Positions 31,709 to 46,273 of a DNA stretch of 64,000 bases are shown here, one piece after another. Positions within the stretch are counted from its first letter, which is position 1. Every line of letters begins with the position of its first letter. This stretch comes from an uncultured Gemmatimonadales bacterium. Its GTDB lineage: Bacteria > Gemmatimonadota > Gemmatimonadetes > Longimicrobiales > Longimicrobiaceae. The notes beneath the pieces are model-generated. The model was not told the origin of the DNA, made no database searches, and saw nothing but the letters and a program-made list of their open reading frames with translations. The position numbers and the translations under genes are program-made. The stretch covers positions 608,001 to 672,000 of the forward strand of contig OY970303.1 of assembly GCA_963716255.1 (NCBI GenBank), written 5' to 3'.

Positions 31709-33034
31709 GAGCAACCGGATTGATGCTTGACACCACAGACCGGGTTGATGCTTGACACTTCTGGTCTATCAAGTTCCACCTCGGGGGGTGTCCGGCGTCA
31801 GCCGGAGAGTTCCCCCGTTCGCTCGTCCAGCCGCGCCAGGAGCAGGTCGTAGAAGTAGATCGACCACACTCCGTCCTCGATCTCCTCCAACGCCACCTCC
31901 TGCCCGATCAGCAACTCGCTGAGGAAGATCGTCCGGTCGCGGAAGTACAGGATCCCGTTACCCCGCACCCGGCGCACCACACAATGCCCCGCGTACTGCG
32001 GCGGGGCGATTTGCTCCGGCATCTCTCGCTCGCACGCCACGTAGAGCGAGCCCGGGGTCTGCATCTCCAGCGCCTGGTGAGGCCGCTCTTCGTTGAACTC
32101 GCGCCGGAAGGCATCGAATCGCTCCTGCTGCACCTGGACGTTGGCCGCCGGGGGCCGCAGCGTGCCCGCCTTGAGCGTGCGATGCATCCGCTCGTGCGAG
32201 CCGTTCTGCTCCGGATGGGCCGGCTCGATCCGCTCGTGCTTGATCCCCATCTGCGTCCACCAGACACTCAGGCGCGAGAGCCCGGCGATGGCTTTCGTGC
32301 AGAACGGGCCTCCATTGTCGCTGCGGATGGCCTGCGGAAGGCCCCGTTCGCGAAAGAGATGCTGGAAGCTCGCGCAGGCTCCCCTGTGCGCGGTCGAACT
32401 CAGTCCCTCACAGGCCAGCAGGTAGCGGGTGTGAGTGTCCGTGACGGTCAGCGGGTAGCACAGCGTCCCGTCGCCCATGCGGAACTCGCCCTTGAAGTCG
32501 GCGTTCCACAGCTGGTTGGCGGCCTCCACCGTGTGTGAGACTCGCCCCGGGTGAGACCACTCCCGCCGGTGCGGCCGAGACTCCACCAGCCCCTCCCGCT
32601 TGTACAGGTCTCCCACCGTGCTCGCCGCCGGCAACTCCAACTCGGGTCGGCGCGGGCGTAACCAGACCAGGATTTTACGGGGGCCCCAATCCGGATGCGC
32701 TTTGCGGGCCTTCAGCAGCGCGGTCCGGACCTCCTCCTTCATGCGGTGCGGACAGGACTTCGGTGCATGGCTGCCGGAAGCCAGCCCCGCAATTCCCTCC
32801 TGCTCGTAGCGGTGCAGCCGAGTGTATCCGGCCTGGCGACTGATGCCGAACCGCTCGCACAGCTCCGTCATGCTGTAGAGCCCCTCCTGTGCGAGAACGA
32901 CGAACTTCATCCGCTCATCCATCGGGTTGGTCTGTCTCCACGGCATGGCTCTCCCTAGGTGTGGGCGAGCGCGTAAGCTACCGTGTCAACCATCCTCCCG
33001 GTCTATTCTGTCAACAATCTACCCGGTCCATACC
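31709..33034 (-). mobile_element. IS481-family insertion sequence (~1.33 kb)
   Basis: Transposase; two subterminal ACCGG..GAT..TTGACA repeats at 31714-31757 and inverted at 32984-33027; GTCT duplicated on both flanks; exact ends uncertain by 1-2 nt. Confidence 0.9.
31798..32946 (-). CDS. IS481-family DDE transposase
   Basis: MPW..ERMKFV, WGPRK, WNADFKG, IRSDNG, NGSHERMHRTLK and ERPHQAL motifs. Confidence 0.95.
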   Translation of the reverse strand: MPWRQTNPMDERMKFVVLAQEGLYSMTELCERFGISRQAGYTRLHRYEQEGIAGLASGSHAPKSCPHRMKEEVRTALLKARKAHPDWGPRKILVWLRPRRPELELPAASTVGDLYKREGLVESRPHRREWSHPGRVSHTVEAANQLWNADFKGEFRMGDGTLCYPLTVTDTHTRYLLACEGLSSTAHRGACASFQHLFRERGLPQAIRSDNGGPFCTKAIAGLSRLSVWWTQMGIKHERIEPAHPEQNGSHERMHRTLKAGTLRPPAANVQVQQERFDAFRREFNEERPHQALEMQTPGSLYVACEREMPEQIAPPQYAGHCVVRRVRGNGILYFRDRTIFLSELLIGQEVALEEIEDGVWSIYFYDLLLARLDERTGELSG

Positions 33035-37648: not shown

Positions 37649-37777
37649 GCGTGAGGGATTACGGCCCGAAGGGGCGAGACCCGGCGGCAGTTTGCCGGGG
37701 CTCGACTCCGTTACGCACGGTTGTTTCGTGCGTTACGGAGCCGAAGCCCGACCCCGGCGCCAGCCGGGGGCACGCCC
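37649..37777. repeat. Structured repeat family A, copy 5 (inverted)
   Basis: GCGTGAGGGATTAC...CACGCCC. Confidence 0.95.
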
Positions 37778-37805
37778 GAACCCGCCGTAGCCGTTCACGA
37801 GCCGT

Positions 37806-38804
37806 TCAGTTGGTGAGGGCGTCGCGGTACCGGCTCCAGTCGTCCAGCACCGTCCCGGCGCCGCGCACCACCGTGGTGAGCGGGTCCTCGTCGATGCGCA
37901 CGGGAAGGCGCGTCTCCTCGGAGAACAGCGCCCCCAGACCGCGCAGCTGCACCCCGCCGCCGGTCATCACGATCCCCTCGTCCACGATGTCGGAGGAAAG
38001 CTCCGGGGGGGTGACCTCCAGCGCCTGCCGCACGCCGGTGGTGATGGCCTGCAGCGGCTCGCGCAGGCAGTCGCGGATCTCCTGCGAGTTGACCCACACG
38101 GTCTTCGGGAAGCCGGAGACCAGGTCGCGCCCCTTGACCTCCATCTCGTGCTCGGAGCCGTTGGGGTAGGCGGAGCCGATGCCGATCTTGACCGCTTCGG
38201 CGGTGGCCTCGCCCACCAGCAGGTTGTGGCTGCGGCGGATGAAGGCGACGATCAGCTCGTCCAGGTCCTGCCCCGCCACGCGGATGGACACGTTGGCGAC
38301 GATCCCGGAGAGCGCCACCACCCCGATCTCGGTGGTCCCCCCGCCGATGTTCACCACCATGCACCCCTTGGGCGTGGTGACGGGGAGCCCGGCGCCGATG
38401 GCGGCGGCGATGGGCTCGGAAAGCATGAACACCTGCCGCGCCCCGGCGGCGATCACCCCCTCGCGCACTGCGCGCCGCTCCATCTCGGTGATGCCGGAGG
38501 GAATGGTGATGAGTACGCGCGGCTTGACGCGCAGGCGCCGCCGCGGGAGAACGCGCTGCAGGAAGTGCCGCAGCATGAGGTCCACGCGGTCCACGTCCGC
38601 GATCACCCCGCCGCGCATGGGGCTCACGGCCAACACGCTGTCCGGGGTGCGCCCCAGCATCCGCTTTGCCTCCAGCCCCACGGCGAGCACCTTGCCGGTG
38701 GAGCGCTCCATCGCCACCACCGAGGGCTCGTTGATCACGATTCCCTCGCCGCGGACGTGGATCAGGGTGTTTGCGGTCCCGAGATCGATCGCGATGTCTG
38801 CCAT
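37806..38804 (-). CDS. mreB: MreB-family actin-like protein (stand-alone paralogue)
   Basis: IDLGTANT, NEPSVVA, EPIAAAIGAG, NIGGGTTE and TGGG motifs; no mreC/mreD adjacent. Confidence 0.93.
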   Translation of the reverse strand: MADIAIDLGTANTLIHVRGEGIVINEPSVVAMERSTGKVLAVGLEAKRMLGRTPDSVLAVSPMRGGVIADVDRVDLMLRHFLQRVLPRRRLRVKPRVLITIPSGITEMERRAVREGVIAAGARQVFMLSEPIAAAIGAGLPVTTPKGCMVVNIGGGTTEIGVVALSGIVANVSIRVAGQDLDELIVAFIRRSHNLLVGEATAEAVKIGIGSAYPNGSEHEMEVKGRDLVSGFPKTVWVNSQEIRDCLREPLQAITTGVRQALEVTPPELSSDIVDEGIVMTGGGVQLRGLGALFSEETRLPVRIDEDPLTTVVRGAGTVLDDWSRYRDALTN

Positions 38805-38902
38805 TTCACTTCAGGTGTGTGCTGTGGACTGCGAGCGCCGCCCGGCGGGGCGGGCGCCTGGATGCGGGCGGAGGCGCGACGGCGCGCGGGCCGGAAACGG
38901 CG

Positions 38903-38955
38903 AAAAGCCGCCGGCGGCCCTCCCCGCGGCCAGGGGGAGGGAGCTCGCTGGCGGC
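38903..38955 (-). terminator. Expression-platform terminator of the second riboswitch
   Basis: GCCGCCAGC...GCCGGCGGC-UUUU with an internal CCCUCCCC/GGGGAGGG stem; overlaps the aptamer 3' end. Confidence 0.65.
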
Positions 38956-39035
38956 TCGGCTGGCGTAGCGGGTGGTTCCCGCCGTAGCCCCGTGGCTCTG
39001 CGCCACCGCCTTTCGACGGCTTCGCCCTTTTCAGC
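38947..39035 (-). ncRNA. c-di-GMP-I (GEMM-I) riboswitch aptamer 2, G at position 20
   Basis: GCUG-AAAA-GGGCGAAGCCGUC-GAAA-GGCGGUGGCGC-AGA-GCCACGGGGCUAC...ACGCCAGCCGAGCCGC-CAGC. Confidence 0.85.
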
Positions 39036-39100
39036 TTCGCGTATGGATCGTCCGACGGCACCGCGGCGAGCGCCGCGCGGGAGGGACCGGCCGGGCGGGG

Positions 39101-39144
39101 AAAAAGAATAGCCGCCAGCGCCGATCTCTCGGAATGCTGGCGGC
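39101..39144 (-). terminator. Expression-platform terminator of the first riboswitch
   Basis: GCCGCCAGC...GCUGGCGGC-UAUUCUUUUU; the 5' arm overlaps the P1 3' strand. Confidence 0.78.
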
Positions 39145-39227
39145 CAGGCGAGCGTGGCGGGCGCGGCCCGCGGTAGCTCCGTAGCTCTGCGTCCCCGCCT
39201 TTCGGCGGGTTTGCTCTTTGCAGCACC
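39133..39227 (-). ncRNA. c-di-GMP-I (GEMM-I) riboswitch aptamer 1, A at position 20 (cGAMP-type signature)
   Basis: GGUGCUG-CAAA-GAGCAAACCCGCC-GAAA-GGCGGGGACGC-AGA-GCUACGGAGCUAC...ACGCUCGCCUGGCCGC-CAGCAUU. Confidence 0.87.
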
Positions 39228-39283
39228 GCCGCCCCACCGGGGGCGTCCGGGATATGTGCCGTACTGTCACCGACTTGATCCGG

Positions 39284-39313
39284 AAGGTAGCCGCTCCGGA
39301 CGGGGTCCGTCAA
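39284..39313 (-). promoter_or_regulatory. Putative promoter of the riboswitch-mreB leader
   Basis: TTGACG-N18-TACCTT on the minus strand. Confidence 0.5.
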
Positions 39314-43713: not shown

Positions 43714-43844
43714 GCGTGAGGGATTTCGGCCCGAAGGGGCGAGACCCCGCGGGCAGTTTCGCGGGGGCTCGACTCCGTTGCAAACGGTAGTATCGTTTGC
43801 TACGGAGCCGAAGCCCGACCCCGGCGCCAGCCGGGGGCACGCCC
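43714..43844. repeat. Structured repeat family A, copy 6 (inverted)
   Basis: GCGTGAGGGATTTC...CACGCCC. Confidence 0.95.
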
Positions 43845-43867
43845 GAACCCTGCCGTTCAAAAGCAGT

Positions 43868-46048
<2,181 letters not shown>

Positions 46049-46146
46049 GTGGCCTCTGGGTGGGGAACCGGGCTTCGACTTCGTTCGAACGGGGGGCCGC
46101 TCTGGCAAGTCAGGTGCCGGGTGGGACGGCTTCCGGCGGAGGGCTC

Positions 46147-46273
46147 GGGCGTGCCCCCGCTGGCGCGGGGTCGGGCTGCGGCTCCGTAGCAGACGAAACT
46201 ACCGTCTGCAACGGAGGCGAGCCCCGGGAAACCGCCCCCGGGTCTCGCCGCTTCGCGCTCGCATCCCTCACGC
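46147..46273. repeat. Structured repeat family A, copy 7 (subtype 2)
   Basis: Ends ...GTCTCGCCGCTTCGCGCTCGCATCCCTCACGC. Confidence 0.92.

Follow-up and report, generated by a model that had tools for sequence, protein, structure and literature searches.

The minus strand of a 64,000-nucleotide stretch of an uncultured Longimicrobiaceae genome (the window; the genome is referred to below as the host genome) carries, ahead of an mreB gene, two aptamers of the GEMM-I (c-di-GMP-I) riboswitch class that differ at their specificity base, with A20 in the upstream unit (unit 1) and G20 in the downstream one (unit 2). This arrangement raises the question of whether the leader integrates two cyclic dinucleotides, 3',3'-cGAMP and c-di-GMP, as an initial annotation of the sequence proposed, or whether both units respond to the same one. 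The analysis presented here favors the second reading, with an estimated probability of about 0.55: both aptamers would read c-di-GMP and together form a sharpened, two-threshold ON switch of an extra mreB copy.

Two GEMM-I aptamers with different specificity bases

A search of the window with the Rfam model RF01051, using Infernal, returned two full-length matches on the minus strand, both covering model positions 1-87 and exceeding the gathering score of 35 (Table 1), in agreement with the original identification of two complete GEMM-I aptamers; the rest of the 64 kb window contains one more Rfam match, a tRNA, and nothing else. Aptamer positions are given in Vc2 numbering (PMC6140456, PMC3764141) and were read off the sequence and its alignment to the model, which also confirmed the annotated A20 and G20. 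Both units share with Vc2 the fold and the pocket residues G14-C93, G21-C46, A47, C92 and C44-G83, as well as a GNRA loop with its receptor, present here as a GAAA loop and a CUAC/ACG motif, and the base of P2 is Vc2-like in both of its pairs (G21-C46, C22-G45). At position 20, unit 2 has the G of Vc2 and of c-di-GMP-I aptamers in general. Unit 1 has A instead and, with C92 kept, carries the sequence mark of GEMM-Ib, being equal in this respect to the bispecific Vc2 G20A mutant (PMC6140456). Both units depart from Vc2 and from the Rfam consensus at position 48, where their AGA junction places a G in lieu of A48, a highly conserved, ligand-contacting base (PMC3764141); unlike Vc2, they also present an A49/C90 mismatch, terminator-type platforms of predicted ON logic and a tandem arrangement.

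A sequencing error at 39215 was ruled out by the presence of A20 in all seven orthologous leaders described below and at both orthologous metagenome loci. Two soil contigs also cover both position-20 sites, with no difference at either among the differences listed. The host genome as a whole contains 15 RF01051 matches, six with A20 and nine with G20, which lie mostly ahead of genes for secreted or surface proteins.

Table 1. Features of the mreB leader and its gene, in window coordinates.
Feature	Position	Strand	Details
Likely sigma-70-type promoter	39284..39313	minus	-35 at 39313, -10 at 39289; function inferred
Aptamer 1 (unit 1)	39225-39136	minus	RF01051 53.5 bits, E 1.2e-7; A20 (39215), A47, G48 (39187), C92 (39140)
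Predicted intrinsic terminator 1	39101..39144	minus	hairpin 39144-39111, -24.8 kcal/mol; 6 T in next 8 bases
Aptamer 2 (unit 2)	39036-38947	minus	RF01051 57.3 bits, E 1.4e-8; G20 (39026), A47, G48 (38998), C92 (38951)
Hairpin 2, short U-run and conserved tail	38895..38955	minus	hairpin 38955-38907, -34.5 kcal/mol; 4 T among the first 8 bases behind it
Regulated gene, stand-alone mreB paralogue	37806..38804	minus	332 aa; TIGR00904 430 bits, NF010539 456 bits, both above cut-off

The leader and its mreB paralogue in the host's genus

The gene behind the tandem is one of three mreB copies in the host genome. The other two are 68% and 65% identical to it, and the 65%-identical copy, located elsewhere in the genome, is followed by ORFs that were named by eye from their translations as mreC-, mreD- and rodA-like. 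The stand-alone mreB copies (window 37806-38804; G000:C1:1769701-1770693) have Asn for Asp in the phosphate-2 motif, where the operon copy differs from them; judging from this substitution, the ATPase behavior of the stand-alone MreBs may differ from that of the operon copy.

Among 20 scanned mreB loci, the riboswitch was present at seven, all of them orthologues from the host's genus. The A20 unit, with its hairpin and U-tract, occurs in each of the seven orthologous leaders, and the G20 unit has been added in five (G000, G001, G002, G006 and G008), the A20 unit being alone in the two most distant orthologues (79-81% MreB identity). Two orthologous metagenome loci again present the A20-then-G20 pair. 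The simplest history compatible with these sequences would begin with a lone A20 switch, which subsequently gained the second unit. The notion that the leader might serve the upstream MFS transporter was excluded, since relatives have different upstream genes but the same linked set of promoter, riboswitch and mreB.

Promoter, hairpins and predicted switching logic

A consensus promoter scan of the window called no promoter in the leader, where the likely sigma-70-type element fell below threshold. This element recurs in all seven orthologous leaders, with an invariant -35 hexamer and a TA-type -10 at equal spacing, behind upstream genes that differ. Downstream of it, a hairpin comes after each aptamer and takes its 5' arm from the P3/P1 3' strand of that same aptamer, so that the annotated use of the P1 3' strand holds for both. 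The 5' arm of hairpin 1 (z -3.99 vs shuffles) takes in C92, C93 and the P1 3' strand, and the first eight bases of the ensuing U-tract contain 5-6 T in the seven genomes, vs only 2-4 T behind hairpin 2 (z -1.85 vs shuffles) in the five genomes that have it. Neither hairpin was flagged by a simple terminator scan that considers only loops of 3-8 bases. Viewed as two aptamers with two expression platforms, the leader has a clear platform in unit 1 and, in unit 2, a strong hairpin with a weak U-tract. The annotated scheme of a hairpin plus U-tract for each aptamer stands for both hairpins, is fair for the first U-tract and is weak for the second; hairpin 2 is predicted to act as a weak terminator or as an OFF fold.

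The pairing of C93 into the completed hairpin is predicted with p 0.96-1.00 overall and p 1.00 for hairpin 1. Because each hairpin captures C92, C93 and the P1 3' strand, ligand binding would oppose hairpin formation, and both switches are predicted to be ON switches. The ligand-free prediction for the P1 pair G14-C93 (p <=0.06 in unit 1, up to 0.80 in unit 2) is neutral on switching. A contig from an RNA library spans 38873-39199; an assembled contig is by itself no sign of transcription or termination.

Search for cGAMP enzymes in the host genome and genus

A leader that requires cGAMP implies cGAMP signalling in the lineage, as the initial annotation pointed out, and the enzymes of such signalling were sought in the host genome, which is 96.7% complete, and in its genus. 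The Hypr signature of cGAMP synthases consists of Ser replacing Asp in GGDEF domains (PMC6456294, PMC8835794). None of the 21 GGDEF matches in the host genome has Ser or Thr at the Hypr position (GacA 347/348), six-frame searches of the genome for the Hypr motif found none, and 26 Hypr-signature proteins from relatives, used as queries, matched only ordinary host GGDEFs at 30-44% identity. In eight genus relatives (61-96% complete), the strict Hypr motif was found in none and the relaxed motif yielded a single match, outside the GGDEF frame; the Asp control motif was matched in all 71 family genomes. Similarly, no HD-GYP domain of the host presents the cGAMP-type signature Rxx(Q/N) (0/7), all seven being of the c-di-GMP type Rxx(R/K) as defined in 10.1101/600031; the genome has three further, weaker HD_5 matches, which lack the GYP motif. 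The single CD-NTase found in the host genome adjoins a SAVED nuclease, as in CBASS, and CD-NTases above the family cut-off occur in two of nine genus genomes, vs five with the tandem. This patchy distribution and the neighboring SAVED nuclease make CBASS an unlikely source of cGAMP for the leader. At the CBASS locus L047 (35-2652), the SAVED-endonuclease effector precedes the CD-NTase. A search for the DncV-like family matched nothing anywhere, controls included, and was hence uninformative. The synthase search thus lent no support to cGAMP signalling in the host lineage, where a cGAMP synthase of unrecognized type nonetheless remains conceivable.

The nine genus genomes contain 52 A20 vs 71 G20 aptamer pattern matches. 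Since these genomes are Hypr-negative, the 52 A20 matches indicate that a sizeable stock of A20 aptamers can persist where there is no Hypr enzyme. In three genus genomes, those of the host and two relatives, an A20/A48 aptamer lies directly before an Asp-type GGDEF (diguanylate cyclase) gene (L009, G000:C1:4102464-4102538; L085; L104), an arrangement that speaks for the c-di-GMP reading and could possibly constitute a feedback loop.

A two-threshold c-di-GMP switch as the favored reading

Given that no Hypr GGDEF was found in the genome or genus and no cGAMP-type HD-GYP in the genome, and that the only CD-NTase found there is a CBASS enzyme, both units are likely to read c-di-GMP. The A20 base alone is no proof of cGAMP recognition, because Vc2 G20A (c-di-GMP 53 nM, cGAMP 120 nM) and the natural A20 aptamer Cbe 1-2 (c-di-GMP 30 nM, cGAMP 463 nM, via a protonated adenine) bind both ligands (PMC6140456); position 20 has been described as a selectivity factor and not a hard filter (PMC9262584). 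As no Hypr enzyme was found in the host, unit 1 was not filed as a cGAMP riboswitch despite its GEMM-Ib mark. The caveat attached to the original proposal, that A20 may yield a promiscuous aptamer, is the likelier case for the host.

According to the favored reading, the RNA would start near 39280 and get past hairpin 1 only if the A20 pocket is occupied by c-di-GMP in time. Unit 1 (A20/G48), probably bispecific in vitro, would use a protonated A20 to bind c-di-GMP with the lower affinity and would set the higher threshold, and the later-added unit 2 (G20) would be a tight binder and a second, leakier gate. Read-through would then be the product of both units, and mreB expression would rise steeply once c-di-GMP is high, and not before. 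The established elements on which this reading builds are the two aptamers, the overlap of C92, C93 and P1 with each hairpin, the conservation of the leader and the lack of recognizable signalling cGAMP enzymes. Against it stand the association between A20 aptamers and GGDEFs of Hypr signature in other parts of the phylum (f4, g14) and the order of mixed tandems, which is always A20 first among those examined. Moreover, unit 2 appears to have undergone an A20-to-G switch that became fixed, for which a same-ligand model offers affinity tuning as its only explanation.

An A20/G48 subtype and candidate Hypr enzymes elsewhere in the phylum

The two-signal alternative, in which unit 1 reads 3',3'-cGAMP, unit 2 reads c-di-GMP and extra mreB is expressed only when both are high, is in our assessment possible but rather unlikely for the host, in whose genus it would require a cGAMP synthase without the Hypr signature. 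It draws support from the GEMM-Ib signature of unit 1, invariant in the seven orthologues, and from the company that A20 keeps in other aptamers. Across the 71 family genomes, with no rows dropped, G48 is present in 131 of 166 A20 pattern matches vs 11 of 268 G20 matches, which indicates that A20 marks a distinct subtype; among the 11, five correspond to unit 2 of the mreB tandem and three look like chance matches. The covariation of positions 20 and 48 holds in GAAA-loop as well as in short GYGA-loop aptamers. A mutual-information scan of 105 aptamers assigned position 48 just 0.15, a value skewed by locus fetching, and the pattern counts were used instead. Judged by sequence, unit 1 is a member of this phylum-wide, terminator-linked A20/G48 subtype, and all of its nearest neighbors are A20/G48. 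Unit 2 is also nearest to the subtype (mean identity over 67 columns of 55.1 to 41 A20/G48 aptamers vs 46.6 to 18 G20/A48 aptamers), and four metagenome relatives that share its P2 have A20. From these two findings, unit 2 was likely derived from the A20/G48 subtype through an A20-to-G switch, and this likely return to G20 within an A20-type scaffold counts in favor of the two-signal reading.

Hypr-signature enzymes do occur in relatives of the host. With a pattern restricted to the Phe-Lys form, GAF-fused Hypr-signature GGDEFs were identified in 14 of the 71 family genomes (G019, G020 and 12 g14 genomes). These GAF-GGDEF proteins (L057-L070) have Ser at the Hypr position, an intact GGDEF motif and the same domain layout as Myxococcus GacB, and are candidate cGAMP synthases in Longimicrobiaceae. 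In a sample of 301 genomes from the phylum, Hypr-signature GGDEFs are present in 40, and the 12 that were read are MASE1-type membrane proteins. The MASE1-GGDEF proteins of family f4 (L124-L135) have Ser at the Hypr position and co-occur with A20/G48 aptamers, and they form a candidate second Hypr group.

The co-occurrence of A20 aptamers with such enzymes was assessed with exact patterns, which miss variants, and without correction for kinship. In f4, A20 aptamers were found in 23 of 34 Hypr-positive vs 15 of 91 Hypr-negative genomes, or 22/34 vs 13/91 after removal of three chance-looking rows; in g14, there are 40 A20 matches in 12 Hypr-positive vs 18 in 25 Hypr-negative genomes, with G20 counts alike. 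Four unpublished genomes (G010, G012, G146 and G254) are counted in these tallies, and no conclusion rests on them alone. A relaxed motif search of five A20-positive, Hypr-negative f4 genomes revealed no missed enzyme. Five f4 genomes without either pattern, a partly circular control given that they were chosen for the absence of the A20 pattern, contain 11 aptamers above cut-off, nine with G20 and two of the short A20 type. No aptamer core was found in the flanks retrieved for 26 Hypr-signature gene loci.

Aptamer order was also compared. Ten family pairs, picked from listed coordinates and not exhaustive (one pair lies 535 bases apart), comprise three A20-G20, five A20-A20, two G20-G20 and no G20-A20 pairs. 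In five Hypr-positive f4 genomes, which were selected for many A20 aptamers and for which 30 of 45 matches were fetched as loci, a G20 unit is the last member of nine of 11 multi-aptamer groups and the first member of none. The relatives examined provide 12 further A20-then-G20 tandems and none reversed; many of these recurring tandems lie ahead of lipoprotein genes that resemble each other, and probably do not represent independent cases. In the mixed tandems of relatives, the A20 unit is of the terminator type and the G20 unit is near the start codon, as in bi-mechanism arrangements, whereas both units of the mreB leader are of the hairpin type. Triple arrays are found before secreted lipoprotein genes at L145, L150 (G098) and L146 (G135), and read A20-A20-A20 twice and A20-A20-G20 once.

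The recurrence of such tandems and the joint occurrence of A20 with GAF- and MASE1-fused enzymes thus lend real circumstantial support to the cGAMP idea at the level of the phylum. For the host itself, the two-signal reading has to contend with nine genus genomes in which neither strict nor relaxed searches recovered a Hypr GGDEF, with HD-GYP domains of the c-di-GMP type and with a CD-NTase distributed differently from the tandem, as well as with a co-occurrence that is uncorrected for kinship and with A20 aptamers that also reside in Hypr-negative genomes. In addition, Asp-to-Ser changes can inactivate GGDEFs (PMC6456294), and in Geobacter and Myxococcus the cGAMP synthase is inhibited by c-di-GMP (PMC6456294, 10.1101/600031), which makes states with both dinucleotides high less natural. 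Two-signal gating is therefore more plausible in the Hypr-bearing relatives than in the host, and even there a bi-mechanism, same-ligand reading is also possible. A broader version, in which A20/G48 is a cGAMP subtype, the A20-then-G20 tandems of the phylum are gates and the host genus relies on an undescribed synthase to gate its extra MreB, is an unlikely one. As regards the initial proposal, the serial arrangement, the predicted ON logic and the conserved A20 and G20 stand, and the dependence on both dinucleotides finds no support among the enzymes of the host.

A conserved tail behind hairpin 2 and the possibility of another ligand

A different reason for the G20 of unit 2 would be that it is kept for an OFF fold, in which G20-G21-C22 and the A-rich J1/2 pair with a conserved tail behind hairpin 2; unit 2 may then be a pause, Rho-linked or post-transcriptional element and not a classical terminator. 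We consider this explanation improbable. The tail is invariant in all five genomes amid diverged spacers, and its pairing with G20-G21-C22 in the absence of ligand is predicted with p 0.84-1.00 for G21; replacing G20 with A in unit 2 is predicted to cost this pairing about 3 kcal/mol in four of the five genomes and 0.7 in the fifth. The second U-tract, with its 2-4 T in 8 bases, and the C-rich spacer behind hairpin 2 (44 C vs 27 G) are in line with a non-classical element. The metagenome orthologue L186, however, lacks the tail and yet has both G20 and the A-rich J1/2, even if a displaced pairing is still predicted there (p 0.78). A terminating hairpin 2 would, furthermore, leave the tail unmade, and GGC/GCC pairings come cheap in GC-rich RNA.

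It is very improbable that the A20/G48 subtype senses c-di-AMP or another cyclic nucleotide, which would turn the leader into a different two-input gate. The G48 substitution does affect a conserved, ligand-contacting base (PMC3764141) and is tightly linked to A20, and the host genome contains one DAC-domain gene, but C92, which demands a guanine on one side of the ligand, is kept in all 71 A20 aptamers of the comparison set. Binding of c-di-AMP has been described for a G20A/C92U double change (PMC7288161), and unit 2 combines G48 with G20.

Comparison with known systems

The favored c-di-GMP reading and its two-signal alternative have separate precedents. In the GEMM-Ib riboswitches of Geobacter (Gs1761, pilM and the tandem before omcAHG), A20 goes with C92 as in unit 1, and control is of the transcriptional ON type, with a terminator that sequesters the C92 equivalent (PMC9262584), the same logic that is predicted for the mreB leader. 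GEMM-Ib tandems also occur in Geobacter (PMC6456294), possibly including mixed pairs. The two systems differ in their targets, cytochrome and pilus genes in Geobacter vs mreB in the host, and in their enzymes: Geobacter has the Hypr synthases GacA and GSU1937, and none were found in the host genome and genus. Same-ligand tandems, on the other hand, place two riboswitches of the same fold in one leader, as here, and are common, with 347 c-di-GMP-I doublets in addition to a Bacillus thuringiensis triplet and SAM-II/SAM-V (PMC9481103, Sherlock et al. 2022); unlike in those tandems, the units of the mreB leader differ at the specificity base. Known AND-type tandems share with the mreB leader a series arrangement of ON switches, which would yield AND logic given different ligands.

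No pair of c-AMP-GMP and c-di-GMP-I riboswitches is present in Table 2 of the tandem survey (PMC9481103), whose supplements might list mixed doublets. The available part of PMC12452182 mentions neither cGAMP, nor mreB, nor Gemmatimonadota. Within the literature covered, which mostly excludes subscription papers, the A20/G20 arrangement, the link between A20 and G48 and Hypr enzymes in Gemmatimonadota are unreported, and nothing relevant was found on mreB under a c-di-GMP riboswitch or on c-di-GMP riboswitches in Gemmatimonadota.

If only c-di-GMP is read, the leader represents a known device that places an mreB paralogue under a second-messenger riboswitch and is tuned naturally by the specificity base. 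If the two-signal gate were true, the leader would count as an RNA logic gate for two dinucleotides, a type missing from the published tandem table (PMC9481103), and would extend signalling cGAMP to Gemmatimonadota. With either outcome, the A20/G48 subtype, the likely natural change from A20 to G20 within a single scaffold and the GAF- and MASE1-fused candidate Hypr groups provide experimental handles that make the determinants of cGAMP selectivity beyond A20 directly testable.

Other features of the window

Similar GC-rich intergenic stretches lie behind several genes of the window (approximately 37650-37795, 43790-43860 and 46110-46190) and have the appearance of REP-type repeats or of small mobile ones. 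An ORF at 31798-32946 resembles IS481 transposases, with a score slightly below the family cut-off (215 vs 224 bits).
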